DNA of 64,000 nucleotides from Candidatus Marinacidobacterium sp. (GTDB lineage: Bacteria; Acidobacteriota; Vicinamibacteria; Marinacidobacterales; Marinacidobacteraceae): positions 3,072,001 to 3,136,000 of the forward strand of contig OZ242011.1 in the NCBI GenBank assembly GCA_965204755.1. The letters are read 5' to 3'. The notes below the pieces were generated by a model. That model saw only the letters and a program-made list of their open reading frames with translations, was not told the DNA's origin and made no database searches. Below, piece by piece: positions 9,107-26,635 of the stretch; position 1 is the stretch's first letter, and each line of letters begins with the position of its first letter. Position numbers and translations under genes: made by a program.

Positions 9107-9178
9107 GCCGGTGTAGCTCAGGGGTAGAGCAGCTGATTCGTAATCAGCAGGTCGGTGGTTCGAATCCACTCGCCGGCT
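9107..9178 (+). tRNA. tRNA-Thr(CGT)
   Basis: Acceptor GCCGGTG/CGCCGGC; anticodon arm GCTGA-TTCGTAA-TCAGC; T-loop GGTTCGAATCC; TAGAAT -10 at 9048-9053. Confidence 0.95.
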
Positions 9179-10329: not shown

Positions 10330-10402
<73 letters not shown>

Positions 10403-11621: not shown

Positions 11622-14132
11622 GTGCGCGTCCCGCTTTCCTGGCTCGGGGAATTCGTCCCGCTGCCGGCGGACCGCGAGGCCCTGGCGCAGCGCCTGACCT
11701 CCGCCGGCGTCGAAGTCACCGCCGTCGAGCGCATCGGCGGGGACTGGGAGGGGGTGGTCGCGGGCCGGGTGCTCGAGGTGGCGCCCCACCCGAACGCCGA
11801 CCGCCTGCGGCTGGTCACCGTGGCCGTCGGCGGCGAGGAACCGCCTCCGCCGGTGATCTGCGGCGCCCCGAATGTGGCCGCCGGGCAAATGATCGCCTTC
11901 GCCGGGGAAGGGGCGGTCCTCGCCGACCCGGCCACCGGCAAACCGCGCAAGTTGAAGAAGTCCCGCATCCGGGGGGTGGTCTCCGCCGGGATGGTCTGCT
12001 CCGAGGCGGAACTCGGCCTCTCCGGCGAGCACGCCGGGATCCTGGTCCTCGACGACATCCTCGACGCCGGGGCCGAGCCGGGGACGCCGCTCCGGGAAGT
12101 CCTCGGCGATCAGGTCTTCGTCCTCGACCTGACGCCGAACCGGGCGGACGCGCTCTCGATGGTCGGCCTCGCCCGCGAGGTCTCGGCGCTCACCGGCGCG
12201 CCGCTCGCGCCCTGGCCTACCGAACCGGAAGCCGCGGGGCCGGGGATCGCCGGGCGGGCGTCCGCGGAAATCGCGGACCCGCGGCTCTGCCGGCGATTCA
12301 CCCTCGCGCTCATCGAGGGCGTCGAAGTCGGCCCGTCGCCGGAGTGGATGCAGGCCCGGCTGACCGCCGCCGGGCTCCGGCCCATCAACAACCTGGTGGA
12401 CATCACGAACTATGTGATGCTCGAATGCGGGCAGCCGGTCCACGCGTTCGACTACGACCGGGTGGCGGAGCACCGGATCATCGTCCGGCGGGCGGAGGCC
12501 GGCGAGACGCTGGTCACGCTGGACGGGAAGGAGCGCGAACTCGACCCGGAGCGGCTGGTGATCGCCGACCCGTCGGGGCCCGTCGCCCTCGCCGGGGTCA
12601 TGGGCGGCCGCGACACCGAGATCACCGGGGACACGCGCAACCTGCTGCTGGAGGCGGCGAACTTCGACCCGGTGAGCGTCCGGCGCACCGCCCGCCGCTA
12701 CGACCTGTTCACCGACGCGGCGCGCCGCTTCGCCTGGGGGCTGCCGCCGGAGTCGGCGCCGATCGCCTCCGCCCGGGTCTGCCGGCTCCTCGAACGCCAC
12801 GCCGGGGGGCGGGTGGCCGCCGGCCGGGTGGATGCGTGGCCGGCGCCCGAACCGAGCCATGCGATCCGCCTCCGCCGCTCGCGGATCCCGCAGGTGCTGG
12901 GGATGGCCCCGTCGGACGAGGCCGTCGAAGGGGCGCTCACCCGCTTGGGTTTCGGGGTCGAGCGGGAGGAGGGGGCGGACGGGGCGAGTGGCGGCGCGGA
13001 GGAAGCGGGGCTCTCGGTGACCGTCCCCCGGTGGCGGCGCGATGTGCGGTTGCCGGACGACCTGGTCGAGGAAGTCGCGCGGGTCCTCGGCTACGACGAC
13101 CTCCCGGCGGCGCCGCTCGCCGGCGCCATCCCCCACCACTCGCCGCTCCCCGCGCGGGCGCTGCGGGAGCGGGTGCGGGACCTGGGCGCGGCGGCGGGGC
13201 TCAGCGAAGTGATGACCTACTCGCTGGTCTCGGACGCGGACCTCGCGGCGGTGCTCTCCGAGGACGCCCGCCGCGCCTCGCCGGCGCTGCGGGTGGCGAA
13301 TCCCCTGGGCGAGGCGCGCGACTCGCTGCGCACTTCGCTCCGTCCGGGAGTGCTGCGCGCCGCCGCGCTGAACTTCGACCGGGGCGCCTCGAGCGTGGCG
13401 CTGTTCGAGGTCTCCCGCGTCTATCGGCCGGGGGCCGACGGAGGCGACGGCCGGCCCGAAGAGGCGGAGTGCGCGGCGGCGGTGGTCGCCGGCGCCCGGC
13501 TCGACCGGTTCGGGCATCCCGTCGCGGAGCGGCTGGACTTCTTCGACGCGAAGGCGACCCTGGAGCGGGTGCTCGCCGGGCTGGGACTCTCGCCGGAGTT
13601 CCGGGCGGTCGAGGAGTTCGGGTATGTCCCCGGACGGACGGCGGAAGCGCGGATCCCGCTCGGCGGCGGCGGGAAGTCGGTCCGGGTCGGGACGATCGGG
13701 CAGGCGGCCCCGGCGTCCGCGGCGGCGTTCGGGTTGGAGGAAGAGGCCTTCGCCTGGGAACTCGACCTCGCCGCGCTGCTCCGCGCCGAACCGGACGGTC
13801 TCACCGCGCCGGCCGCCGCCTCCCCGCTGCCGCGGTTCCCGGCGGCGGCGGAAGACTTCGCGTTCCTGGTCCCGGAGGACACTCCGGCCGGGGCGCTCGC
13901 GCGGGAGGCGGAGAGCCACCCGCTCGTCGTCGAGGCGCGGGTCTTCGACGACTACCGACTCACCGAGGGGCAGGGCGCAGAAGCCGCCCCCGGTTCGCGT
14001 TCCCTGGGTCTCCGCGTGCTCTACCGCGCGCCGAACCGGACGCTGAACGAGAACGACATTGCCAAAGTCCGAAGGACGATCTTGAAGCGGTTGAAGTCGA
14101 GTCTCGGTGCAGTCGTTCGGGACCGCGCCTGA
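11622..14132 (+). CDS. pheT: Phenylalanine--tRNA ligase beta subunit
   Basis: HPNADRL, CGAPN, LTPNRAD, INNLVDITNYVM, DLVEEVARVLGYD. Confidence 0.97.
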   Translation: MRVPLSWLGEFVPLPADREALAQRLTSAGVEVTAVERIGGDWEGVVAGRVLEVAPHPNADRLRLVTVAVGGEEPPPPVICGAPNVAAGQMIAFAGEGAVLADPATGKPRKLKKSRIRGVVSAGMVCSEAELGLSGEHAGILVLDDILDAGAEPGTPLREVLGDQVFVLDLTPNRADALSMVGLAREVSALTGAPLAPWPTEPEAAGPGIAGRASAEIADPRLCRRFTLALIEGVEVGPSPEWMQARLTAAGLRPINNLVDITNYVMLECGQPVHAFDYDRVAEHRIIVRRAEAGETLVTLDGKERELDPERLVIADPSGPVALAGVMGGRDTEITGDTRNLLLEAANFDPVSVRRTARRYDLFTDAARRFAWGLPPESAPIASARVCRLLERHAGGRVAAGRVDAWPAPEPSHAIRLRRSRIPQVLGMAPSDEAVEGALTRLGFGVEREEGADGASGGAEEAGLSVTVPRWRRDVRLPDDLVEEVARVLGYDDLPAAPLAGAIPHHSPLPARALRERVRDLGAAAGLSEVMTYSLVSDADLAAVLSEDARRASPALRVANPLGEARDSLRTSLRPGVLRAAALNFDRGASSVALFEVSRVYRPGADGGDGRPEEAECAAAVVAGARLDRFGHPVAERLDFFDAKATLERVLAGLGLSPEFRAVEEFGYVPGRTAEARIPLGGGGKSVRVGTIGQAAPASAAAFGLEEEAFAWELDLAALLRAEPDGLTAPAAASPLPRFPAAAEDFAFLVPEDTPAGALAREAESHPLVVEARVFDDYRLTEGQGAEAAPGSRSLGLRVLYRAPNRTLNENDIAKVRRTILKRLKSSLGAVVRDRA

Positions 14133-14289
14133 CCCTCCGGGTCGGGCCGTCCGCCGCTCCGCCGCCGGCGGGCGCCCCCGCCCGCGGCCCCGCGAACGCT
14201 CCGGCGGGCGTTCGTCGGGCGGGCGCCCAACCGACGGACATCCCGCCGACGGACATCCTGCCGGCGAACATCCCGCCGGCGGGGCGGCG

Positions 14290-15258
14290 CTGTCGGGCGA
14301 CCTCATCGCCGCCTCCCCCCGGATGCGGGCGCTCCTCCGGGACGCCGCCCGGATCGCGCGTTTCGATGTCCCGGTCCTGATCGAAGGGGAGACCGGGGCC
14401 GGGAAGGAACTGCTGGCGCGGTTCCTCCACCGGGAGAGCCCCCGGCGCCGCCGGGCGCTGGTCGCCGTGAACTGCGGCGCGGTCCCGGACGACCTCCTCG
14501 AGGCGGAGTTCTTCGGCCACGCCCGCGGCGCGTTCACCGGGGCCGCCGAGGCCCGCGCCGGGCTGGTCGAGGCGGCGGACGGGGGCACGCTCTTCCTCGA
14601 CGAAGTCGGCGAACTCTCGCCGAGGGCCCAGGCGCTGCTGCTGCGCGTCCTGCAGGAGCGCGAGTACCGGCGCGTCGGCGAAACCCGCGTCCGCCGCTCC
14701 GACTTCCGGCTGGTTTCGGCCACCCACCGCGCGCTGGCCGACCTCGTTGCCGCCGGGTCGTTCCGGGCCGACCTGTTCTACCGGCTGGCGGTGGCGCGCG
14801 TCCGCATCCCGCCGCTCCGGGAGCGCTGCGACGAGTTCGGGGAGATCGCGGCGGGCCTGCTCGCCCGCCTCTCCCGGCGCTACCGGATCCCGGTGCCGGA
14901 GGTCTCCCCGGAGGCGCTCTCCGCCCTCGCCGCCCGCCCCTGGCCGGGCAACATCCGCGAACTCGAGTCCGCGCTCGCCGCCGCCGTCCTCTCCCGCCCC
15001 GGCGCTGCCCGGCTGGAACCGGAGGACTTCTCCGCCGCGCCGCCGCCCGAAGCGGCGCCGACCGGGGAATCCCGCCCCGCCGCCGCAGCGCCGGCGGCGG
15101 ACGGACGGGCCCTCTCCGAAGCCCTCGCCGCGTTCGAGCGCCTGTTCCTGCTCGCCGCGCTCCGGCGCGCCTCCGGCAGCCGCGCGGCGGCGGCGAGATC
15201 GCTCGGCATCACCCGCCAGGGGCTCTGGCGAAAACTCCGCCGCCACGGCATCCGCTGA
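14290..15258 (+). CDS. Sigma-54 enhancer-binding AAA+ activator with Fis-type HTH and no N-terminal sensor domain (start uncertain; ATG at 14323)
   Basis: GETGAGKE, GAFTGA, LFLDEVGE, FRADLFYRL, WPGNIREL, C-terminal AARSLGITRQGLWRKL. Confidence 0.88.
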   Translation: MSGDLIAASPRMRALLRDAARIARFDVPVLIEGETGAGKELLARFLHRESPRRRRALVAVNCGAVPDDLLEAEFFGHARGAFTGAAEARAGLVEAADGGTLFLDEVGELSPRAQALLLRVLQEREYRRVGETRVRRSDFRLVSATHRALADLVAAGSFRADLFYRLAVARVRIPPLRERCDEFGEIAAGLLARLSRRYRIPVPEVSPEALSALAARPWPGNIRELESALAAAVLSRPGAARLEPEDFSAAPPPEAAPTGESRPAAAAPAADGRALSEALAAFERLFLLAALRRASGSRAAAARSLGITRQGLWRKLRRHGIR

Positions 15259-15269
15259 CCGGCCTCGAA

Positions 15270-15860
15270 ATGCGGAGGGAGCCGGGCCCGGTCGCGACGG
15301 AAGACCACCTCGAAGAGGCCGCCGGCGCCGACTACGCCCTCGCCCGCCGCCGCGTCCGCTCCATCGTCGGGGGCCCGGCGTTCGACCGCTTCCTTCGCCA
15401 AGTGAGGGACTACCGCAACCGAACCTACCCGCCGGAGGCGAAGAGAGTCCACCGGGTACGGATGAAAGACGAAGACAAGGCTCGCATCGGACATCTCTTC
15501 GTCGCCGCGCTGGGCGATTCGGCGCGCCAAGTCCTGCCGCCGCCTCCGGGCCTCGGGGCTACGCCGACCCGCCTGGTGCGGCTGTCCCCGGAAACTGCGG
15601 TCAAACAGGTACTCCACCACGGAGACCTGACGCCGGCCGACTACCGACGGATCCCCGACCTCATCGAAGACGAACGCTTCCAGAAGACGGGCGACCGTAA
15701 ACTGGCCTTCTTCGGCTACTACGATGGCCAATGGCGCCGCGCCATCGTGAAGCAAGCCACGAGCGCCGACGAGCTCTATCTCGCCAGTTACCACAAGGCT
15801 CGCCCGAACCAAGTCCCCGAGTCCGTCCGCACGGAACGGGAGCAGTCACAACGGGACTAG
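15270..15860 (+). CDS. Stand-alone PBECR2-like (BECR-fold) putative RNase/toxin domain
   Basis: LSPETAVKQVLHHGDLTPADYRRIPDLI...WRRAIVK...DELYLASYHK resembles the PBECR2 domain found at the C-terminus of phage MuF proteins (by eye). Confidence 0.65.
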   Translation: MRREPGPVATEDHLEEAAGADYALARRRVRSIVGGPAFDRFLRQVRDYRNRTYPPEAKRVHRVRMKDEDKARIGHLFVAALGDSARQVLPPPPGLGATPTRLVRLSPETAVKQVLHHGDLTPADYRRIPDLIEDERFQKTGDRKLAFFGYYDGQWRRAIVKQATSADELYLASYHKARPNQVPESVRTEREQSQRD

Positions 15861-15976
15861 GTGGCGCACGGTGGGGCCCGCAATCCGAGCAACGCTCGGC
15901 AACCCCACGTAACGCGCTGTCCCCGTAAGGGGAACTGGCTACGGCTTGCGGAGTATTACCGTGTCACGTGCGCCGC
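15861..15976. ncRNA. Structured RNA repeat copy A1
   Basis: Terminal stem GTGGCGCAC/GTGCGCCGC; GTGGGG/CCCCAC; crossing CCGCAA/TTGCGG; hairpins CCGAGC-AAC-GCTCGG and TCCCC-GTAA-GGGGA. Confidence 0.7.
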
Positions 15977-16091
15977 CGAGAATGCTAGCACGCCACGCCC
16001 CGTGCGTCGGCGCCACTTGTCGGGCCGGGGCATCCGGTCGGAAGCCGCCCGCGGCGAAGGTCGGCGAGGCCGATGACTCCGTTGATCCGGT

Positions 16092-16209
16092 GTGGCGCAC
16101 ACGGTGGGGCCTCCTGTCCAGCCGAGGCTGGCAACCCCACATTTCACCGGTCATTCCCGAAGGAACGGGCCACGGGTAGGAGAATGTCACCGTCCGTCGC
16201 GTGCGCCAC
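16092..16209. ncRNA. Structured RNA repeat copy B1
   Basis: GTGGCGCAC/GTGCGCCAC; GTGGGG/CCCCAC; crossing CTCCTG/TAGGAG; hairpins CCAGCC-GA-GGCTGG and TTCC-CGAA-GGAA. Confidence 0.7.
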
Positions 16210-16384
16210 CGGGAAGTATAGCGGCGCCGGGGTCGCCTGCCGGGGGCGGGTCGAACCGGGGGCGCCGGTGGGCGGGGAGCCTCCGGATGGCCGAGAGGCG
16301 CCCGAACTCTCACCGCCGGAAACTCCATGGTCCGGAGGAACTCGTCTTGGGAGCGCGGGTACGCCACTCCGGTACCCGACCGGT

Positions 16385-16500
16385 GTGGCGCACGGTGGGG
16401 CCCGCAATCCGAGCAACGCTCGGCAACCCCACATAACGCTCTGTCCCCGTGAGGGGAACTGGCTACGGCTTGCGGAGTATTACCGTGTCACATGCGCCAC
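16385..16500. ncRNA. Structured RNA repeat copy A2
   Basis: Near-identical to A1, 524 nt downstream; hairpin loop GTGA instead of GTAA. Confidence 0.7.
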
Positions 16501-16616
16501 CGGGGACATTAGCGCCCCGGATGTCGCGCGTCAGCGCCACCTGTCTCGCTCGGGGCATCGGGTCGGAAGCCGCCTGCGGCGAAGGTCGGCGAGGCCGATG
16601 ACTCCGTTGATCCGGG

Positions 16617-16732
16617 GTGGCGCACGGTGGGGCCTCCCATCCGGTTGAAGCCGGCAACCCCACATTTCACCTGTCATTCCCGAAGGAACGGGCCACGGGC
16701 GGGAGAATGTCACCGTGCGTCGCGTGCGCCGA
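16617..16732. ncRNA. Structured RNA repeat copy B2
   Basis: Similar to B1, 525 nt downstream; crossing CTCCC/GGGAG; hairpin CCGGTT-GA-AGCCGG. Confidence 0.7.
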
Positions 16733-16949
16733 CGGGAGCGTAGCGCTTTCACTACGCGCCGCCCGGCCGGCCAGCCGGCCCGAGGAGCGAGAGAATCGCC
16801 GGACCGGCGAGGCGCGGATCGCGGATGAGGGCGTCGGCCGGCGGCTCCGGGCCGCCGAAGGCGGGGAGGCCTCCCGCCCGTAGAATCGCCGCCCAACCGG
16901 AATTGCCCGATACGCCCTGCGAAATCCACCCGGACGGAGGGAGTCCGTC

Positions 16950-19900
16950 GTGAGCGGGACGGGGAAGCGGCTGATCGAGGTCGCGTTCCCGTTGGAGCAG
17001 GTGTCCAAGGACTCCGTCCACGAGAAGAATGTGCGGCACGGGCATATCTCGACCCTGCACATCTGGCCGGCGCGGAGGCCGCTGGCGGCGAGTCGGGGGG
17101 TGGTTCTCTCGACGCTGTTGCCGGACCCGGGGGCCTCCGACCGGCGGCGGGTGCTGGAGCGGATGGCGGGGCATTGGACGGTGATCCGGGACGAGGACGG
17201 GGAGGTCGTCGACCGGGTGTGGAAGGACGGGATCTTCCATTGGGGGAAGGAGAACCGGCGGGAACTGGACGCCTTCCGGGAGGAAGTCCGCGAGGTGTTC
17301 GGGGGGCGGGCGCCGCGGGTGCTGGATCCGTTCGCGGGGGGCGGGGCGATTCCGTTGGAGGCGATGCGGCTGGGGTGCGAGGTGGAGGCGGCGGACCTGA
17401 ACCCGGTGGCCTGGTTCATCCTGCGGTGCGCGCTCCACTACCCGCGGCTCGCTTCGGGGGAGCGGCGGCTGCCGGAGTCCCTGTCGGCGTATCCGGCGTT
17501 CGGGGAGGCGCTTGGGTGGGCGGCCGACCGGGAGGCGGCGAGTCTCGGCGGGCGGCGGCGGGGGAGGAAGAGGAAGGCGGGCCCGGAGGCCGGCTCGGAG
17601 GCGGGGCCGGCGCTGCTGACACCCGGTCGGGCGGGCGCGCCGGCGGTTCCGTTCGCGTGGCACCTGCGGGCGTGGGGGGAGCGCGTTCTCGCGGGGGCGC
17701 GGCGGGAGGTCGCGGCGCGGTATCCGGTGTATGCGGACTTCGAGCCGAAACGGCGGAAGGGGCGGGGCTACGACTCGCCGGAGGTCGGTTTCGAGCCGCG
17801 GCCCATGCGGCAGTTGGAACCGGACGCCGAAGGGCTGGTTTCGGTGGAGGAGTTGAACCGGGAGTTCGGCGAGGAATACCTGGAGGACGAGCGGAATCCC
17901 CGGTGGGTGGCGAAACCGCCGGTGGCCTACCTGTGGGCGAGGACCGCGAAGTGCGCGGGGTGCCGGGCGGAAGTGCCGTTGTTGAAGACGCGATGGCTTT
18001 GCCGGAAACCCGAGGGCGCGAATCGGCCGGCGAAGCGCGTGCTCCTCGAGATGACGCCGCGGGCGGACGGGAGCGGGGTGGACTTCGGGCTCGATCTCGA
18101 AGTTCCGGAGGAAGCGGAGACTCCGGCGGCGCGGCGCGAGAGCGACCGGAAATTGGGCGCCGGGACGATGACCCGGCGGGGCGCGACCTGCCCGTGCTGC
18201 GGCGCGATCGCCACGATGGCCGACCTGCGGCTGGAAGGGCGGGCCGGGCGGCTCGGGGAGCGGATGACCGCGGTGGTGGTGGACGGCCAGCGGGGGAAGG
18301 AGTACCGGTTGCCTACGGAGGCGGAGTTCGCGGCGGCGGAGGTGGGCGAGGAGGAGTTGGAGGGGTTGTATGCGGGTATCCCGTTCGGACTTCCCGACGA
18401 GCCCACTCCGAGACCGGGGATGGGCGCGTCGCGCGCGTTTTCGGTGCGGGGTTACGGCTTCGACACCTGGCGGCGCCTGTTCACGAATCGGCAGTTGCTC
18501 GCCATCGGCATCCTGCTACGGGAGATCCGGGTCTGCGCCGAAGAGATGGACGGGTATCCCGAAGCGTGGCGCGAAGCGTTGTGGGTGACTCTCTCCGGCG
18601 CGCTGAGCAAGTTCACGGACTACAGCAGCGCCATCTGCTCCTGGCACAACAGCGGAGAAAAACTGAGGAGCACTTTCGCCCGCTTCGCGCTGCCGATCGT
18701 GTGGGACTACTGCGAAGTCAACACCCTGGCGGCGACTACCGGGGGATTCCTCGCCTCCGTCGAATGGGTGGCGCGGGTCATGGCGCACCTGACGGAGATC
18801 GAGAGCGCGAGTGCGCCTTCGGTGCAGCGGCGGTCGGCGATCGAGGCGATTCCCGGCGAGTTCGATCTCATCTGCACCGACCCGCCGTACTACGACGCGA
18901 TTCCCTACTCCGACCTGATGGACTTCTTCCACCTCTGGCTTCGCCGCGCGCTCCACGGCGTCTCGGAGGAAACCGACCGCGCGCTCGCCTCGGCGCTCGG
19001 CCCGAAGTGGGACGCGGACGCGAACGACGGGGAACTCATAGACGACGCCAACCGGTTCGACGGCAGCCGCGAAGCCTCGAAACGGAACTACGAGGACGGC
19101 ATGGCGCGGTGCTTCGCGCGGTTCCGCGACGCGCTGCGGGACGACGGCCGGTTCGTGGTCGTCTTCGCCAGCAAGGACCCGAACGCCTGGGAGACGCTGG
19201 TCTCCGCGATCATCCGCTCCGGTTTCGTGGTTTCCGCTTCGTGGCCGATCCAGACCGAGATGGCGACGCGCCAGCGGGGCCGGGCGTCGGCGGCGCTCGC
19301 CTCTTCGATCTGGCTGGTGTGCGGGAAGCGGCCGGCGGCCGCGAGGCGCGGCTGGGACCGCCAGGTGCTCCGGGCGATGCGCCGGAACATCCGGGAACAG
19401 TTGCATCGGTTCTGGGACGCGGGGATTCGCGGGCCGGACTTCGTATGGGCGGCCACCGGGCCGGCGCTCGAAGCGTTCAGCCGTCACCCGTTCGTCGAAA
19501 AGGCGGACGAAGAAGGCGAACGAATGGGCGTGGCGGAGTTCCTCGGGCAGGTCCGGCGCGAAGTCGTGGGCTTCGCGGTGAGCCGGGTGCTCGCCCGCGA
19601 AGAGGGAGGAGCGGATTCTTCCCTCGTCGAAGGCCTCGACGACCCGACCACCTACTACCTGCTGCACCGGAAGGACTTCGGGCTCGACCCGGCGCCGGCC
19701 GGCGCCTGCATCCTCTACTCGCTCTCCTGCGGCGTCTCCGACTCCGACCTCACCGGCCGCCTCGACTTCCTGGCCCGCAAGGAGTCTCGCGGCGGGAGCG
19801 AAGCGGAGGCCGAAGCGGACGACGACGACGGCGGCGCCGCCGGAGGCCGGATGCGGCTCAAACCGTGGGCCCGCCGCCGTCGGTCCGTCGGCGATCCCGG

Positions 19901-20225
19901 GGCGGACGGTTCGCCCCCGCCGTTGATCGACGCGCTGCATCGGACGATGCGCCTCTGGAGGGAGGGCGACCAGGGGAAGGTGGACGCCTACATCGCGCAA
20001 ACCGGGATCGCGGAGAGCGAACTGTTCGGGCGCGTCCTCCAGGCGGTGATCGAGATGGCGGAACCGGACTCGGAAGAACGCAGCCTGCTGGAATCCATCC
20101 GCAACCATGTCCCGGCATTCCGCGCCGCGGCCCCCGCGCCTTCGGGACCGCGGCCGGCGAGTCTGCCCTTCGCCGCGCCGGACGCTCCGGAACCATCCAC
20201 CCGATCCGCCGCCTCCGAGTCCTGA
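16950..20225 (+). CDS. DUF1156-family adenine DNA methyltransferase with zinc ribbon
   Basis: HISTLHIWPARRPLAA, SAM motif DPFAGGGAIP, CAGC and CPCC, catalytic TDPPYYD; GGAGG RBS; TAGAAT at 16881. Confidence 0.9.
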   Translation: MSGTGKRLIEVAFPLEQVSKDSVHEKNVRHGHISTLHIWPARRPLAASRGVVLSTLLPDPGASDRRRVLERMAGHWTVIRDEDGEVVDRVWKDGIFHWGKENRRELDAFREEVREVFGGRAPRVLDPFAGGGAIPLEAMRLGCEVEAADLNPVAWFILRCALHYPRLASGERRLPESLSAYPAFGEALGWAADREAASLGGRRRGRKRKAGPEAGSEAGPALLTPGRAGAPAVPFAWHLRAWGERVLAGARREVAARYPVYADFEPKRRKGRGYDSPEVGFEPRPMRQLEPDAEGLVSVEELNREFGEEYLEDERNPRWVAKPPVAYLWARTAKCAGCRAEVPLLKTRWLCRKPEGANRPAKRVLLEMTPRADGSGVDFGLDLEVPEEAETPAARRESDRKLGAGTMTRRGATCPCCGAIATMADLRLEGRAGRLGERMTAVVVDGQRGKEYRLPTEAEFAAAEVGEEELEGLYAGIPFGLPDEPTPRPGMGASRAFSVRGYGFDTWRRLFTNRQLLAIGILLREIRVCAEEMDGYPEAWREALWVTLSGALSKFTDYSSAICSWHNSGEKLRSTFARFALPIVWDYCEVNTLAATTGGFLASVEWVARVMAHLTEIESASAPSVQRRSAIEAIPGEFDLICTDPPYYDAIPYSDLMDFFHLWLRRALHGVSEETDRALASALGPKWDADANDGELIDDANRFDGSREASKRNYEDGMARCFARFRDALRDDGRFVVVFASKDPNAWETLVSAIIRSGFVVSASWPIQTEMATRQRGRASAALASSIWLVCGKRPAAARRGWDRQVLRAMRRNIREQLHRFWDAGIRGPDFVWAATGPALEAFSRHPFVEKADEEGERMGVAEFLGQVRREVVGFAVSRVLAREEGGADSSLVEGLDDPTTYYLLHRKDFGLDPAPAGACILYSLSCGVSDSDLTGRLDFLARKESRGGSEAEAEADDDDGGAAGGRMRLKPWARRRRSVGDPGADGSPPPLIDALHRTMRLWREGDQGKVDAYIAQTGIAESELFGRVLQAVIEMAEPDSEERSLLESIRNHVPAFRAAAPAPSGPRPASLPFAAPDAPEPSTRSAASES

Positions 20226-20296
20226 ACTACGGGGGCTCCGGTATCCGGCCCCCCGGCCGGCATGACCGGTTGGGCGAAGGGGACTGACTCGGCGGG

Positions 20297-20411
20297 GTGG
20301 CGCGCGGTGGGGCCTCCCTTCCGGCCGGAACCGGCAACCCCGCCTATCACCAAGCATCCCGAAGGAACGGGTCACGGGCGGGAGAATTTCGCCGTGCGTC
20401 GCGCGCGCCGC
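20297..20411. ncRNA. Structured RNA repeat copy B3 (diverged)
   Basis: GTGGCGCGC/GCGCGCCGC; GTGGGG/CCCCGC; CTCCC/GGGAG; TCCCGAAGGAACGGG retained. Confidence 0.65.
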
Positions 20412-20542
20412 CCGGAGCCGAAGCCAAGCCGGGAGTGATTCGCGGCGAGGGGGGCTCGCTGCCCGCCGCCCCCTACTATTTCCCTTCCACTTTCCTTCCC
20501 CGTCGGGCCCTCCGCCGGTCCGGCCGTTCGCCGGGAGGCCCG

Positions 20543-23500
20543 ATGGCACACGACACTTCGACAACGACGCCGCCGGAGCGGCGGCCCGCTTCCCGGGCGC
20601 GGCTGCCGCTCCTCCTCGCCCTGTGCGCCCTCGCCGCTCCCGGCGCGCCGGCAACCGCGCAGGAAACCGCGCCGCCGGTCTTCGACGACCTCCGGCTGCG
20701 CTCCATCGGCCCGGCGGTGATGGCCGGACGGGTCTCCGCGCTGGAAGTCGTTCCCGGCCGTCCGCACGAGTTCTACATCGGGACGGCGTCCGGCGGCCTC
20801 TTCCGGACGCGGAACAACGGCGCGACCTGGGACGCGCTCTTCGAGCGCTACACCACGACCTCCATCGGGGCGCTGGCGCTCGCGCCTTCCGACCCGGCGA
20901 CGGTCTGGGTGGGAACCGGCGAGCCGGCGAACCGCCAGAGTTCCTCTTTCGGCGACGGCGTATACCTCTCGTTCGACGCCGGGGAGAGTTTCACCCGAGT
21001 CGGGCTCGAAGAGAGCGAACACATCGGCCGCATCGTGGTGGACCCGCAGCGGCCGCGCCGCGCGTTCGTGGCCGCGCTCGGCCCGCTCTGGCGCTCCGGC
21101 GGCGACCGGGGCGTCTTCCTCACCGAAGACGGCGGCGCGACTTGGCGGCATTCGCTCGCCATCTCGGAAGACACCGGCGCGGTGGACCTGGAGATGGACC
21201 CGACGAATCCCTCGATCCTCTACGCCGCGGCCTATACCCGCCGAAGAACTCCCTGGGGTTTCAACGGCGGCGGGCCGGAAGGCGGCATCTACCGCACCAC
21301 CGACGGCGGCGCCACCTGGTCGCGCCTCGCCGGGGGTTTGCCGGAAGGCCCGGTCGGCCGCATCGGCCTGGAGATCGTGGAATCGAACCCGACGGTGGTG
21401 TACGCGACGGTGGAGCACGCCACCGAGTCGGGAACCTGGCGCTCGGAGGATCGGGGCGGGACCTGGGAGCGGATCTCCGACCTGAACCCCCGCCCGATGT
21501 ACTACTCGCACATCGAAGTGGATCCGGCGGATCCGCGCCGGGTGTATGTCCTCGGCGCGCAGTTCCACCTGTCGGACGACGGCGGACGCACCTTCCGCGA
21601 AAACCGCGACATGACGCCGACCTACGACATCGGCGTGCACGGCGACCACCACGCCCTGTGGATGGATCCGGAGAACGGTGACCACCTGCTGCTCGGCGGC
21701 GACGGCGGCGTGTACGAGTCCTGGGACCGCGCGGTCTCCTGGCGCAAGATCAACAACCTCCCGCTCACCCAGTACTACGCGATCTCGCTGGATATGGAAA
21801 CTCCGTACAACATCTACGGCGGCGCGCAGGACACCCATTCCTGGGTCGGCCCGTCGGCCACGCGCAACCAGGCCGGCATCCTGAACTCGGACTGGAAGCA
21901 GACGAACTTCGGCGACGGCATGGACCAGGCCGCCGCGCCCGACGAACCGGGTCTCGCGTTCACTTCGTCGCAGAACGGGAACATCGTCCGCATCGACACG
22001 GCGAACGGGCAGCGCCTGACCGCGCGTCCGTTCCCCGAGGAGGACGAAGACCGCTACCGCTTCCATTGGCTATCGCCGATGGACACTTCGCCGCACCGCG
22101 CCGGCCGGGTGTACTTCGGCGGCAACCGGATGTTCCTCTCGGACGACTTCGGCGCGGTCTGGCGCGCCACCGAAGACCTGACGCTCCGGGAAGACCGGAG
22201 CGAGTTGCCCATCCTCGGCGTCCTACCGGCGGAAGGAATCCTCTCGATGCACGACGGCGTGTCGCACTGGGGAACGCTCACCACGCTGGCGGAATCCCCG
22301 CTGGTTCCCGGCCTGCTCTACGCGGGCTCGGACGACGGCCGGGTATCGCGGTCCGACGACGACGGCGCGACCTGGGTGTTCCTCGAAGACAACCTGCCGA
22401 CGGAGACCCTCCGAGCCACGATCAGCCGGGTCACGCCGTCCTCCCACGAACCGGACCGGCTCTATGTCGCGGTGGACCGCCACCATTCGGGTGACTTCGC
22501 GCCGCTGGCGTTCGTTTCCGAGGATCGCGGCGAAACCTTCCGGGAGATCGGCGGCGGCCTGCCGCGCGGCTGGGTGAACGACCTGGTGGAGCACCCGGAC
22601 GGCGCCGACCTGCTCGTGGCCGGGACGGAAGTCGGGGCTTTCGTTTCGTTCGACCGGGGCGGTTCGTGGATGCGGCTGGGCGGCGGGCTGCCCCATGCGC
22701 CGGTGGACGACATCGAAATCCACCCGCGCGACCGGGACCTGGTGCTCGGCACGCACGGCCGGTCGATCTACATCCTCGACGACAGCGCCCCGCTCGCCCG
22801 GCATGATCCGGACGCCGGCGTCCAACTCTTCGAGCCGCGCCCGGCGCTCGTGTACCTCCCCTGGAAGCACGAGAGTTACGAGGCGCAGGCGCGCTACGCC
22901 GGGGAGAACCCGCCGGCGGGCGCGCTGCTGACGGTGTTCCTGCCCGAGGGCGCCGTCGCGGGGACGCCGCCGGAGATGGAAGTCCGGAACTCCGGGAAGG
23001 TGGTGGCCCGCCCGACCGTCGAGGCGCGGGCGGGCTTCCAGCGCGTCGTCTGGGACTTGGCCGCCGCTCCCGAAGACACCGCGTCCGGGTCGGCGGAATC
23101 CGGAGGCGAAGACGACTGCGCCATCCCCGGCCCGCGCGCCGCCGTCGGCCGCTATACCGTCCGGTTGACCGCGGGCGGCGTGGAACGGGAAGCGCCGCTC
23201 GAAGTGCGCCTCGACCCCTCGGTTACCGTGAGCGAAGCGGCCTACGCCGAGCGGACGGGTTTCCTGCTGGACATCCGCAACACGCTGGTGGAGGCCTGCC
23301 GCGCCGCCGCGCCGTTCGCCGACGCGAACGAAGACGAGTTCACCGAGGCGCAGCGCTCTGCGCTCACGGACCTCCGCTCCGGCGGCGGCTTCCGCAACCC
23401 TTCCGCCCGCTCCCGCCTCGCCCGCCTCTACTCCGAGTTCACCGGCGACCGCGTCCGCCAGGGCACGCTCGACGCCCCCACCCCGGTGCATCGCCGCCGC

Positions 23501-23557
23501 TTCGCCTCCCTCCGTTCGCGCCTCCTCGCCGCCGCCGGCCTCCTCGAATCCCGCTGA
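20543..23557 (+). CDS. Exported BNR/Asp-box (sortilin/VPS10-like) beta-propeller, glycosyl hydrolase-like
   Basis: GGAGG then ATG 20543; signal peptide; LRSIGPAVMAGRV; many (S/T)xDxGxTW boxes. Confidence 0.85.
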   Translation: MAHDTSTTTPPERRPASRARLPLLLALCALAAPGAPATAQETAPPVFDDLRLRSIGPAVMAGRVSALEVVPGRPHEFYIGTASGGLFRTRNNGATWDALFERYTTTSIGALALAPSDPATVWVGTGEPANRQSSSFGDGVYLSFDAGESFTRVGLEESEHIGRIVVDPQRPRRAFVAALGPLWRSGGDRGVFLTEDGGATWRHSLAISEDTGAVDLEMDPTNPSILYAAAYTRRRTPWGFNGGGPEGGIYRTTDGGATWSRLAGGLPEGPVGRIGLEIVESNPTVVYATVEHATESGTWRSEDRGGTWERISDLNPRPMYYSHIEVDPADPRRVYVLGAQFHLSDDGGRTFRENRDMTPTYDIGVHGDHHALWMDPENGDHLLLGGDGGVYESWDRAVSWRKINNLPLTQYYAISLDMETPYNIYGGAQDTHSWVGPSATRNQAGILNSDWKQTNFGDGMDQAAAPDEPGLAFTSSQNGNIVRIDTANGQRLTARPFPEEDEDRYRFHWLSPMDTSPHRAGRVYFGGNRMFLSDDFGAVWRATEDLTLREDRSELPILGVLPAEGILSMHDGVSHWGTLTTLAESPLVPGLLYAGSDDGRVSRSDDDGATWVFLEDNLPTETLRATISRVTPSSHEPDRLYVAVDRHHSGDFAPLAFVSEDRGETFREIGGGLPRGWVNDLVEHPDGADLLVAGTEVGAFVSFDRGGSWMRLGGGLPHAPVDDIEIHPRDRDLVLGTHGRSIYILDDSAPLARHDPDAGVQLFEPRPALVYLPWKHESYEAQARYAGENPPAGALLTVFLPEGAVAGTPPEMEVRNSGKVVARPTVEARAGFQRVVWDLAAAPEDTASGSAESGGEDDCAIPGPRAAVGRYTVRLTAGGVEREAPLEVRLDPSVTVSEAAYAERTGFLLDIRNTLVEACRAAAPFADANEDEFTEAQRSALTDLRSGGGFRNPSARSRLARLYSEFTGDRVRQGTLDAPTPVHRRRFASLRSRLLAAAGLLESR

Positions 23558-23599
23558 CCCTTCGTTCGCTTGCGCCCCGACCTTCGCCGAAGCCCCGAC

Positions 23600-25390
23600 A
23601 TGAAGATCCTCCACTACCTCGAGATCGAGAACTTCAAGCGGTTCGGCGAGCGCCAACGCATCGAACTCGACCACCCGACCGTCCTGATCGGCCCGAACGA
23701 CTGCGGCAAGACCACCGCCCTCCAGGCCATCGCCCTCTGGTCGCACGCCGTCCGCCACTGGTGGGACGCGAAGGGAGCGAACGCTCGCCGGGACGCGCCC
23801 GCCTCGCTGGTCCGGTCGGAGATCGTCTCGGTTCCGGTGCGTCGGACGCGCCACTACTGGCGCAACCTCGTCGCAAGGAAGGGCAACCGCGAGGTCCCGC
23901 TGCGTATCGCCGTGGGAATGGAGCAGGACGGCAAGGTCGAACCCGTGGCGATGCGGTTTCGCAGCCACGGAGACGACCTCGTGTACTGCGTTCCCGAAGA
24001 GGAGACCCTGGCGAACCGCGATCTGCTCCGTTCCGCCTCGCGGGTGAAGGTGGACCTGCTGTATCCCATGTCGGGACTCGAAATGGACGAGCCGGTGCTC
24101 CTGCCGCGGCGCATCGACGCGTTGCTGGGGCAGGGACAGACCGCCTCGATCCTCCGAAATGTCTGCCTGGAGGCGCGCGGCTCCTCGGAGGACGACTGGC
24201 GCGAGGTCACGCATCGGATGCGGCGCCTGTTCGCAGTCGAACTCGGTGAACCGGTGGCGAACGCTCGCGGAGGCATCACGCTCGAGTATCGCCGGGCCGG
24301 AGCCCGCGAACCGCTCGATGTCTCCTCGGCCGGCCGCGGACTGCAGCAGGTACTGCTGCTCCTCGCTTATCTCTACTCCGATCGTGGTCGAGTCCTCCTG
24401 ATCGACGAACCGGACGCCCACCTGGAACTGCTCCGCCAGAGGCAGGTGCATGTGCTGCTCCGGGATCTCGCCGCGAAGCGCGGCACCCAGATCGTGCTGG
24501 CCACGCATTCCGAAGAAGTGTTGCGGGAGGCGCTCGACCACAACCTCACGCTCCTGCTCGACGGCCGCGCGGAGTCGTTGGCCGGTAAGGGCGAAATCGT
24601 CGACGCGCTGCGCCACTTCGGGGCGGAGCACTATGTCCGGGCGCGGCAGAGCGGGTATGTGCTCTATCTCGAAGGGCGGACCGACCTCGACCTCCTGCGG
24701 GCGCTCGCGGAACACTCGGGGCATGCGGTCCTCGACCGCTGGGACGAGATGCCCAATGTGTTCTTCGTCCGCGACAACTACCCCGATCCCGACGCGGACT
24801 CCGAGTTGGAACGGGTGGAGGGAGGCTACGGCGTCACGCCGCGGAAGCACTTCTTCGGCATCCGCGACATGGCGCGGGGCCTTCCTGGACTCGCGATCCT
24901 CGACAGCAAGGGCCGTTCCCCCAGCGACACGGACGACGGCGGCCTTCGTATCGCCTACTGGCGGCGCTACGAGATCGAGAACTACTTCATCACGCCCGCG
25001 GTGCTGGAGGCATATGCGCTCTCCCGTTACGGGGACGCGACCCTCTTCGCCGGGTTCCGTACCGAGATCGAGTCCGTCTTGGACACGGTGGTCCGGGAGC
25101 GCGTGTTCGGGGGCAACGAACGCGACTTTCTCACTTGGAAGGGTCTCGCCGAAGACGCCGCCCGGCTCCTGTGGGAAGCCCGGACCGAACGACTGAAGGT
25201 CAGCGCGGTGGCGGAAGCGTTCTTCGAGGCCTTGGCGGAGCGCCTGAACCGCCCGGTCCTGCTGCGCAAGCGCGACTTCCGCGACTTGGTTCCGTTCGCT
25301 TCCCGCGAGGCGATTCCGGCAGAGGTCGGAGAGAAGTTGGATCTGCTGAAGAGCCTCTTCGAACGCGCAGAACCCGGGATCGTGGAGTAG
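23600..25390 (+). CDS. ABC/AAA_15-type ATPase fused to a TOPRIM-like domain (OLD-like)
   Basis: IENFKRF, Walker A GPNDCGKTT, LLIDEPDAHL, ATHS; C-terminal YLEGRTD and RYEIENY. Confidence 0.8.
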   Translation: MKILHYLEIENFKRFGERQRIELDHPTVLIGPNDCGKTTALQAIALWSHAVRHWWDAKGANARRDAPASLVRSEIVSVPVRRTRHYWRNLVARKGNREVPLRIAVGMEQDGKVEPVAMRFRSHGDDLVYCVPEEETLANRDLLRSASRVKVDLLYPMSGLEMDEPVLLPRRIDALLGQGQTASILRNVCLEARGSSEDDWREVTHRMRRLFAVELGEPVANARGGITLEYRRAGAREPLDVSSAGRGLQQVLLLLAYLYSDRGRVLLIDEPDAHLELLRQRQVHVLLRDLAAKRGTQIVLATHSEEVLREALDHNLTLLLDGRAESLAGKGEIVDALRHFGAEHYVRARQSGYVLYLEGRTDLDLLRALAEHSGHAVLDRWDEMPNVFFVRDNYPDPDADSELERVEGGYGVTPRKHFFGIRDMARGLPGLAILDSKGRSPSDTDDGGLRIAYWRRYEIENYFITPAVLEAYALSRYGDATLFAGFRTEIESVLDTVVRERVFGGNERDFLTWKGLAEDAARLLWEARTERLKVSAVAEAFFEALAERLNRPVLLRKRDFRDLVPFASREAIPAEVGEKLDLLKSLFERAEPGIVE

Positions 25391-25399
25391 CCTTCCCGA

Positions 25400-26635
25400 A
25401 TGCTCTTCCACGAACTGCGCCTTTCCGGTCTGCTCTCCTTCGGTCCGGACGGCGTCTCGCTGCCGATGAAGCCGCTCAATGTGCTGATCGGCCCGAACGG
25501 TTCCGGCAAGTCCAACTTCCTGGAAGCGATCTCCTTGTTCCGCGCGGCGCCGGGGGAAGTCACCGCGCCGATATCGCGCAGCGGAGGCATCCGCGAGTGG
25601 CGTTGGAAGGGGGACGGTCCCGGGGCCAACCTGAGACTCCACGCCCGTTTGGATGTGCCGGGCGTCGGTGAAGTGCAGCACGAAATCGCGTTCGGTGAAC
25701 GCGAGGGCGCCACGGTCGTTACGGAAGAGATGCTTCGGTGTTGCGGACCGGATGACCCGGAGAACTTGCAGAGCCGCTATTCCCGCCCTCCGTGGTCGAC
25801 GATTCTCGTGCGGCGCATCGCGCGGCTCACAGAAGCGAAAGGAGAGGATGCCACGAAGAATCCGGAAACAGCCGATCGTGTTTCCCGAGAGTCCCGGGAA
25901 ACCGCACGATCGGTGGACTACGCGGAGGACTTGCGTCCAAGGGAGTCCATCCTGTGCTTGGCTGCCACGCCCGACCATCCGGTGCCGTGGCGCGTGAAGG
26001 AGCAATACGAAGGCATCCGGATGTATCGCAACTGGTCGTTCGGCCCGAACGCCGAGGTGCGTGTTCCGGCCAGCGCTCACGACCGCAGCGACTTTCTCGA
26101 GGAAGACGCCGGTAATTTGGCGCTCGTTCTGTCGCACCTGCAAGGAGAGCGGAAGAGGAAGTTTCTGGGGGCCGCCGGCCGATTGTTCGAGGGGATCGTG
26201 GACTTCCGCTGTCCGGTTACCGGCGGCGTCGTCTCGCTGTTCCTCGAGGAGGGCGACGGACGGATCATCCCGGCGAGCCGTCTGTCGGGCGGGACACTGC
26301 GCTACCTGAGCCTCCTCGCGATCCTCCTCCACCCGGAGCCGCCGCCCGTCATCTGCATCGAAGAACCGGAATTGGGTCTGCACCCGGACCTGTTGCCGAC
26401 CCTGTGCGACCTGATGCGGGAGGCTTCGGCGCACAGTCAGTTGATCGTCACGACCCACTCCGACATCTTGGTGGATGCGTTGACCGAGGAGCCGGAGGCC
26501 GTCGTCGTCGTCGAGAAGGAGGAAGGGCAGTCCACCATGCGCCGGCTCGACGGCGAGAACCTCGCGAAGTGGATCGAGAACTACGGACTGGGCGAACTGT
26601 GGATTTCCGGCGAGTTGGGCGGGAATCGCTGGTGA
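25400..26635 (+). CDS. AAA_21 / ABC-type ATPase
   Basis: GPNGSGKSN, signature LSGGT, IEEPELGLHP, TTHS, C-terminal LGELWISGELGG. Confidence 0.9.
   Translation: MLFHELRLSGLLSFGPDGVSLPMKPLNVLIGPNGSGKSNFLEAISLFRAAPGEVTAPISRSGGIREWRWKGDGPGANLRLHARLDVPGVGEVQHEIAFGEREGATVVTEEMLRCCGPDDPENLQSRYSRPPWSTILVRRIARLTEAKGEDATKNPETADRVSRESRETARSVDYAEDLRPRESILCLAATPDHPVPWRVKEQYEGIRMYRNWSFGPNAEVRVPASAHDRSDFLEEDAGNLALVLSHLQGERKRKFLGAAGRLFEGIVDFRCPVTGGVVSLFLEEGDGRIIPASRLSGGTLRYLSLLAILLHPEPPPVICIEEPELGLHPDLLPTLCDLMREASAHSQLIVTTHSDILVDALTEEPEAVVVVEKEEGQSTMRRLDGENLAKWIENYGLGELWISGELGGNRW

Follow-up and report, generated by a model that had tools for sequence, protein, structure and literature searches.

Structured RNAs directly behind genes for predicted MuF-C/PBECR-like RNases in Candidatus Marinacidobacterium and Mu-like phages: a possible RNA-antitoxin pairing

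Introduction

What is the role of an array of RNA-like repeats that begins exactly where the translation of a predicted nuclease ends? This question was raised by a 64,000-nt stretch of the genome of Candidatus Marinacidobacterium sp. (assembly GCA_965204755.1, contig OZ242011.1, positions 3,072,001 to 3,136,000; hereafter the window), in which an open reading frame (ORF) of 196 aa is followed by four tandem repeats of about 115 nt. An earlier interpretation made from the letters of the window alone (the sequence-only reading) had proposed that the ORF encodes a BECR-fold nuclease and that the repeats are RNAs acting as its antitoxin, decoy or substrate, in the manner of toxin–antitoxin (TA) systems of type III. 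Here, we examined the repeats, the protein and their joint occurrence in the genome of origin (3.98 Mb), in related genomes, and in phage and metagenome contigs. The repeats are copies of a structured RNA, termed RNA-I, which recurs directly behind genes for the same type of protein domain. The reading we favor is a type III TA-like pairing, in which the predicted BECR RNase would be neutralised or held by its cognate structured RNA; judging from sequence and predicted structure, we give it a probability of about one half.

Results

An array of four RNA-I copies starts at the stop codon of the 196-aa ORF

The 196-aa ORF is located on the plus strand at 15270–15860 of the window and ends with a TAG codon at 15858–15860. 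Its GC content by codon position is 0.74/0.47/0.82, a coding-like pattern that is usual for genes of this 72%-GC genome. On the same strand, the first RNA-I copy, A1 (15861–15974), follows the TAG with no gap, as had been noticed from the sequence, and its match to the RNA-I model R1 (107.1 bits) spans 15858–15977 and thus starts on the stop codon itself. It is followed by copies B1 (16092–16207; 104.8 bits), A2 (16385–16498; 106.6 bits) and B2 (16617–16730; 115.9 bits), all on the plus strand. The order A1-B1-A2-B2 represents a diverged duplication of about 524 bp, again in agreement with the sequence-only reading, with a spacing of 523–525 bp and an identity between the duplicated copies of 85% for A and 88% for B. 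That reading had also held that the repeats are far better conserved than the sequence right after them, which applies only past the B copies, where similarity does fall off; the A-to-B linkers found by repeat search (16026–16100 and 16551–16625, both on the plus strand) are 96% identical and thereby more alike than the repeats themselves. Nor did A and B turn out to be two sequence classes, as had been supposed: they are sub-variants of one RNA family, and a real second class occurs elsewhere in the genome with another protein clade (see below).

The ORFs that overlap the repeats have a flat GC content by codon position (0.72/0.68/0.71 and 0.68/0.70/0.70), and the array therefore contains no credible ORF, which bears out the earlier remark that no immunity gene follows. 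A promoter and terminator scan of 14900–20700 gave nothing exceeding shuffled sequences, and no terminator-like site was found within the array. A fifth RNA-I copy in the window (20297–20409, plus strand; 94.8 bits) is located 72 nt past the stop codon of an HmaB-like methylase gene and shows compensatory changes in its closing stem P1.

RNA-I is a structured RNA with a four-way junction and a pseudoknot

RNA-I is a real structured RNA of about 115 nt whose fold combines a four-way junction and a pseudoknot. It is closed by a stem of 9 bp (P1), within which lie a 6-bp stem (P2) with a small hairpin inside it, a variable hairpin (P3) and a 4-bp stem (P4); the pseudoknot joins the internal loop of P2 to the loop of P4. 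In the 13 copies of the genome of origin, 92.7% of cells pair, compared with 35–49% when the partners were slid by 1–3 columns. Among 99 copies from all sources, 94.0% of cells pair versus 79.5% in shuffles and at most 50.9% in the slid controls. Changes on both sides were found in 23 of the 35 pairs in these 99 copies, and covariation backs every helix. The pseudoknot helix shows compensatory changes in four of its five pairs and occurs in 28 different strand combinations, the majority of which are complementary. The G-U pairs identify the strand of the ORF as that of the RNA. About 40 positions of RNA-I are at least 90% invariant.

Each unit is followed by a conserved single-stranded tail of approximately GGRA-N3-UAGC. 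The motif TAGC was present within 22 nt 3′ of 53 of the 99 copies, compared with 14 of 396 control windows, and mostly lies past P1, 7–8 nt beyond the end of the RNA-I model. A second pseudoknot, formed by pairing of this tail with a GCUAC junction, was considered and dropped, as the variants inspected showed no covariation. Two other interpretations of the repeats were rejected as well: a sigma-54 promoter at the repeat start, where the spacing is unsuitable and the covariation indicates RNA, and integron attC-like cassettes, which misfit a four-way junction with a pseudoknot.

A check against Rfam, suggested by the sequence-only reading, left RNA-I without a match. At gathering scores, Rfam 15 matched only two tRNAs in the whole window, and at E ≤ 10 it gave two unrelated weak matches in 15200–20700, neither of them to RNA-I. 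Past the array, at 16842–16875, there is a weak match to the DUF3800-XI RNA with 21.6 bits (E 0.13), below the gathering score of 37.8, which is probably due to chance.

The 196-aa protein is a predicted stand-alone MuF-C/PBECR-like RNase

Ten close homologues of the 196-aa protein (58–99% identity) share its start and length; all begin with MRREPGP or MRKEPGP, and residues K112, H117 and S173 are invariant in all ten. A profile built from these ten homologues matched 371 proteins at E ≤ 0.001 among 1.84 billion representative sequences, most of them over residues ~98–190 only. Ten long matches carry a further N-terminal domain, Phage_Mu_F in nine and the PT-TG pre-toxin domain in one, and all 27 long relatives that were aligned have Phage_Mu_F at the N-terminus. 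The A7 profile matched the window ORF with an E-value of 3e-33. Five of the 27 long relatives matched PBECR3 (PF18812) at E ≤ 0.01 (best E 3.6e-7), and one of these matches had 25.4 bits, where the cut-off is 30. No match to PBECR2 was seen among the ORF and the long relatives searched. The N-terminal ~95 residues of the 196-aa protein, which are helical, align with the linker region of MuF proteins; the protein resembles the C-terminal half of such a protein.

The AlphaFold model of the protein has a pLDDT of 70.7. Over residues ~100–189, its fold matches included a RelE-type TA toxin (7vd7_A; Z 6.5), BrnT (Z 6.4), a CdiA-CT tRNase (Z 5.5), RelE (Z 4.3) and colicin D (Z 4.0). A profile search with the relatives gave no match at E ≤ 1 among the sequences of the PDB. 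Passages of PMC5512222 describe MuF-C as an RNase domain of the PBECR (phage BECR) type whose active site consists of a His within the N-terminal helix together with a C-terminal Ser or Thr. In the 196-aa protein, H117 falls in a predicted helix (107–117) and S173 in the last strand; their counterparts in MuF proteins, H290 and S345, are invariant in eight MuF relatives. H117 and S173 would thus fit the published PBECR active site, if they are the residues that map to it. Given the profile relatives, the PBECR3 matches, the conserved His and Ser and the fold matches, we describe the protein as a stand-alone MuF-C/PBECR-like predicted RNase with its C-terminal domain at residues ~98–190. The nuclease assignment of the sequence-only reading is kept in so far as the domain is of the phage MuF-C type, with a predicted BECR fold, but the nearest Pfam family is PBECR3, weakly and as a distant relative, and not the PBECR2 that had been named.

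RNA-I follows members of the predicted nuclease family in the genome of origin and its relatives

In the genome of origin, exactly 13 RNA-I copies (95–132 bits) were found at five places. Three of these places are directly behind paralogues of the ORF, namely the array in the window, a five-copy array at genome position 2824379 and a single copy at 3059584, and they hold 10 of the 13 copies. Scatter through the genome in the manner of REP or MITE repeats, which would have spoken against the original proposal, was thus not observed. In the sister genome G001, 26 copies were distributed over 12 places, five of which are behind a gene of the family. All five arrays with at least four copies are located directly behind a family gene: the one in the window, the one at 2824379 and three in G001 (L042, L043 and L044). 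In these loci, tandem direct repeats adjoin the candidate toxin gene, four behind the window ORF and five to six behind its paralogues in the genome of origin and in G001.

Among 151 genomes comprising the genome of origin and 150 relatives, RNA-I was present in seven (six of the 150 others), all of one family. It was also present in one of 150 other sampled genomes of the phylum, where it is directly behind a full MuF-MuF-C gene.

Two RNA-I copies at 1990502–1990829 (minus strand; L004) of the genome of origin lie between a gene for TcmP (three-Cys-motif partner) and its Gp37/Gp68-like partner. In G001, RNA-I copies are likewise found around a TcmP/Gp37-Gp68-like gene pair (L046), at positions that differ from those in the genome of origin.

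RNA-I is tied to the predicted nuclease domain of phage MuF proteins

The association was then approached from the RNA side. A scan with the exact motif of RNA-I alone retrieved 38 IMG/VR and 46 metagenome contigs, in which the model gave 67 strong matches representing 44 distinct sequences. One locus per distinct sequence was retained, which gave 41 loci after removal of duplicates, of the end-truncated L137 and of the second copy in each of L114 and L135. RNA-I is located at the stop codon of an ORF of ~400 aa with a MuF-C-type C-terminal domain in 24 of the 41, and one more locus has a truncated remnant of a MuF-C gene before the RNA. The RNA-I match starts within 10 nt of the stop codon in 22 of the 24; the outliers are a gap of 54 nt (L078) and an overlap of 42 nt (L090). 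A model search of this kind had been suggested by the sequence-only reading, and it places matches directly 3′ of MuF-C-type genes in other genomes as well as in phages.

The phage loci carry a single RNA-I copy, and no conserved small ORF follows it. Most of the ORFs that come next on this strand are long (about 340–400 aa) or start within ~20 nt, with gpT 2–4 kb downstream; by likeness, these next ORFs may be the Mu-type protease/scaffold gene (gene I) and gpG. Two loci, L114 (from a human gut metagenome) and L135, have two tandem RNA-I copies convergent with a Mu-like gpT major head gene, and no MuF-C gene was found within the contig stretch examined in either.

Starting from the gene side, we picked 80 MuF loci by the N-terminal domain alone, of which 23 have this C-terminal domain and 57 lack it. 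RNA-I was found behind 12 of the 23 genes with the domain and behind 0 of the 57 without it; it is therefore the nuclease domain, and not MuF in itself, with which the RNA is paired. That the link persists where the MuF domain has been lost, as in the window, also ties it to the nuclease domain. A further five of the 23 loci (two of them identical) carry at the same place a short variant, an RNA of ~90 nt with the layout of RNA-I, and two further ones have the same tail motif. A blastn search with a phage RNA-I copy gave no match in INPHARED phages, complete Escherichia coli genomes or PLSDB plasmids, and RNA-I has thus so far been seen in uncultured or prophage contigs only.

A second RNA class follows a separate clade of the predicted nuclease family

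Other family members in the genome of origin are followed by a different conserved RNA, RNA-II, which has a length of ~150–165 nt and also starts from the stop codon. It is linked to one full MuF gene and to others that encode 211, 301 and 165 aa. The RNA has hairpins of its own and a long-range helix, and 10 of 12 copies end in a TAGC-type tail. A blast search gave 15 matches in the genome, including those at 3057702–3058860 (minus strand), 474554–474719 (plus), 3967325–3967462 (minus) and 3895195–3895901 (minus) (loci L006 and L224–L226); the 165-aa gene is followed by an array of four copies, and two copies follow gene remnants of this kind. The RNA-II loci gave one unrelated weak match to Rfam 15 only. 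Whatever their function, RNA-I and RNA-II are two complex, widely distributed RNA families missing from Rfam 15.

In a tree of 57 C-terminal domains, the RNA-II-linked proteins form a separate clade with a support of 100/100, and the proteins associated with the short variant form another one, also with 100/100. A fifth member of the RNA-II protein clade likewise has RNA-II directly behind it. A mixed array of the two RNA classes behind a MuF gene of G001 has the order RNA-II, RNA-I, RNA-II, RNA-II.

Discussion

A proposed cognate protein–RNA pair

The predicted RNase, the start of the RNA at the end of translation, the pairing by domain and by clade, the lack of an immunity gene, the arrays and the defence setting together led us to read the ORF and RNA-I as a cognate pair. 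By analogy, the pattern fits a protein–RNA pair that diversifies as toxin–immunity pairs do. Since gene and RNA are found together in many Mu-like phages, the latter is probably a built-in antidote or partner of the nuclease. RNase activity of the protein, its binding and inhibition by the RNA and the processing of the RNA are what we infer from this pattern.

Under such a scheme, RNA-I would be transcribed on one mRNA with the nuclease gene and would fold once the ribosome is past the stop codon; the start of the RNA match adjoins this codon or overlaps it, and P1 begins within a few bases. It would then bind the newly made C-terminal nuclease domain and hold it inactive, and the GGRA-N3-UAGC tail may be a putative site for processing or binding by the nuclease. 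In a cell that produces a Mu-like phage, the single copy would serve to neutralise the RNase tip carried by the MuF head protein. In the acidobacterium, where the domain occurs without the MuF part, amplification of the RNA into arrays may supply an excess of antidote, which a chromosomal module for TA or abortive infection, or immunity to the nucleases of incoming phages, would require. A broader proposition, for which we would offer somewhat less than even odds, is that MuF-C/PBECR RNases are neutralised not by immunity proteins but by dedicated structured RNAs, in at least three co-diversifying pairs (RNA-I, its short variant and RNA-II). In Mu-like phages, one copy in cis would silence the injected RNase until delivery, and in bacteria the captured domain with its amplified and mixed arrays might serve as type III-like TA or abortive-infection modules of a new class built on BECR, or as heritable RNA immunity cassettes against the nucleases of incoming phages.

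Several observations count against this pairing. Two of the five RNA-I places in the genome of origin are behind other genes (the HmaB-like methylase gene and the TcmP gene), and the fifth copy in the window accordingly has no MuF-C family gene before it. A family gene at 1183765–1185057 (minus strand) of the same genome, which encodes two tandem MuF-C-like domains, is followed by neither RNA-I nor RNA-II, and neither RNA-I nor the short variant was found at 6 of the 23 MuF genes with the C-terminal domain. Of the 41 loci retrieved with the RNA, 16 have no MuF-C gene upstream, and some orphan copies are located near the Mor/GemA genes of Mu-like prophages in either orientation. As to the protein, the window ORF was unmatched in Pfam (even at E 10), NCBIfam and PADLOC; its fold matches do not exceed Z 6.5, and values below 8 may only mean a common arrangement; and Foldseek gave no match at E ≤ 0.001, the best being BrnT with E 3.6e-3. 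The position of the RNA downstream of the gene, from the stop codon onward, is moreover the reverse of the type III order discussed below.

The orphan copies beside Mor/GemA genes were seen in five loci (L126, L133, L131, L132 and L128); RNA-I is upstream of mor on the same strand in two and divergent in two. Copies at this place could be expressed apart from the late MuF gene.

Alternative roles of RNA-I

RNA-I could instead be a cis-acting element in the 3′ untranslated region (3′-UTR) of the nuclease mRNA, involved in processing, stability or a termination-coupled event, or an autoregulatory substrate, and not an inhibitor. Its invariable location on the strand of the upstream gene, its start at the stop codon and a conserved tail that could act as a cleavage site all agree with this, and according to passages of PMC5512222 the BECR RNase RegB of phage T4 cuts phage mRNAs. 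Arrays of four to six copies with no downstream gene, however, misfit a 3′-UTR signal, as do stand-alone copies far from any MuF-C gene and the mixing of RNA-I and RNA-II in one array; a four-way junction, a covarying pseudoknot and loops that are ~90% invariant also exceed the needs of a stabiliser. We therefore regard a cis-acting role as unlikely. Somewhat less likely still is a positive role, in which RNA-I would be a cofactor for the folding, targeting or capsid incorporation of MuF-C, or a cargo injected with it as a ribonucleoprotein. Co-occurrence and class pairing apply to it equally, and passages of PMC5512222 suggest RNA binding as a possible mode of action of phage Mu's inactive MuF-C, but a neutralising or immunity role better fits arrays that are amplified and mixed and orphan copies that lie in host islands.

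That RNA-I is a selfish or autonomous element landing behind these genes, either MITE/REP-like or a self-cleaving ribozyme, appears quite improbable, even though it occurs in multiple copies, has a terminal inverted repeat of 9 bp (P1), is found in several contexts and is sporadically distributed in the genomes sampled. Compensatory changes maintain its internal helices and pseudoknot, which is unlike recent transposition, and with a mere 13 copies in the genome of origin, 10 of them at places behind a family gene, it also differs from REP and MITE repeats in abundance and placement. In addition, two unrelated RNA classes each follow a protein clade of their own, and no known ribozyme family in Rfam 15 was matched.

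Comparison with known systems

To our knowledge, type III TA systems comprise only three families, toxIN, cptIN and tenpIN. In these systems, RNA repeats with units of 34–45 nt are located upstream of the toxin gene, with a terminator between the two. The loci described here resemble ToxIN, CptIN and TenpIN in that an endoRNase gene (here that of a predicted RNase) adjoins a pseudoknotted RNA that is present as tandem direct repeats, different toxin clades are matched by different RNA families, the loci are found in phages and defence islands, and a conserved single-stranded stretch lies between the units, which could be a cleavage site. They differ in that the candidate toxin is of the BECR/MuF-C type and not of the ToxN/CptN/TenpN family, the RNA lies on the other side of the gene, the units measure 115–165 nt with variable linkers, and a single unit is present in phages. 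Type III TA systems are the nearest parallel in logic; with toxin family, gene order and unit size all different, the system does not belong to a known type III family. A fixed classification of type III systems, with tenpIN named first, is introduced in the abstract of PMC13682666.

MuF polymorphic toxins, as described in passages of PMC5576092 and PMC5512222, share with our phage loci a MuF N-terminus followed by a variable C-terminal toxin domain and a place in the head-gene module of prophages. The described ones have downstream protein immunity genes, according to passages of PMC11806420, whereas a structured RNA and no conserved ORF is found here. A word search of PMC5576092 for non-coding, noncoding and intergenic gave no hit, and the passages seen of PMC5512222, PMC5576092, PMC11806420 and a 2026 BECR preprint mention no RNA behind MuF/PBECR genes. 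Nor was such an RNA described in the literature searched, which covered the main texts of openly available papers and was examined for RNAs linked to MuF or PBECR genes and for new type III families.

Compared with PBECR3 and other BECR RNases, the 196-aa protein has a predicted fold nearest to BrnT, a RelE-type TA toxin and CdiA-CT and shares the conserved His and C-terminal Ser; it differs by scoring below every Pfam threshold and by its extra N-terminal helical region of ~95 aa, which is also present in MuF linkers. Known BECR RNases are neutralised by proteins (BrnA, RelB, CdiI and ImmD). Like the phage-associated RNA motifs in Rfam, RNA-I and RNA-II are structured RNAs tied to a particular phage gene, although they match none of the families there.

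If the RNA does neutralise the nuclease, this would represent the first case of a polymorphic toxin from phages with an RNA as its "immunity", would extend the RNA-antitoxin systems by a new branch based on the BECR RNase fold, which is very common, and would account for the absence of an immunity gene beside many MuF-C genes. RNA-I and RNA-II each have a clear protein partner, and the pairing of RNA class with protein clade provides a ready specificity matrix.

Genomic setting of the locus

The ORF and its array sit beside defence genes, and this defence-island setting fits the proposed cognate pair. A DUF1156 methylase gene at 16950–20225, which matched HmaB in PADLOC (E 1e-108), is flanked by copy B2 and the fifth RNA-I copy. 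An OLD/Gabija/AriA-like AAA ATPase is encoded at 23570–25390, and a protein matching HEC-01A (E 2e-125) at 25400–26635. The gene at 20447–23557, which separates the methylase gene from those of the ATPases, encodes a large protein with Sortilin/BNR (Asp-box) repeats and without a PADLOC match. On the other side, a gene for a sigma-54-dependent activator (Sigma54_activat, HTH_8) at 14107–15258 ends 12 nt before the ATG of the 196-aa ORF. The two tRNA genes that Rfam matched at gathering scores in the window are located further upstream, at 9107–9178 (plus strand) and 10330–10402 (minus strand).

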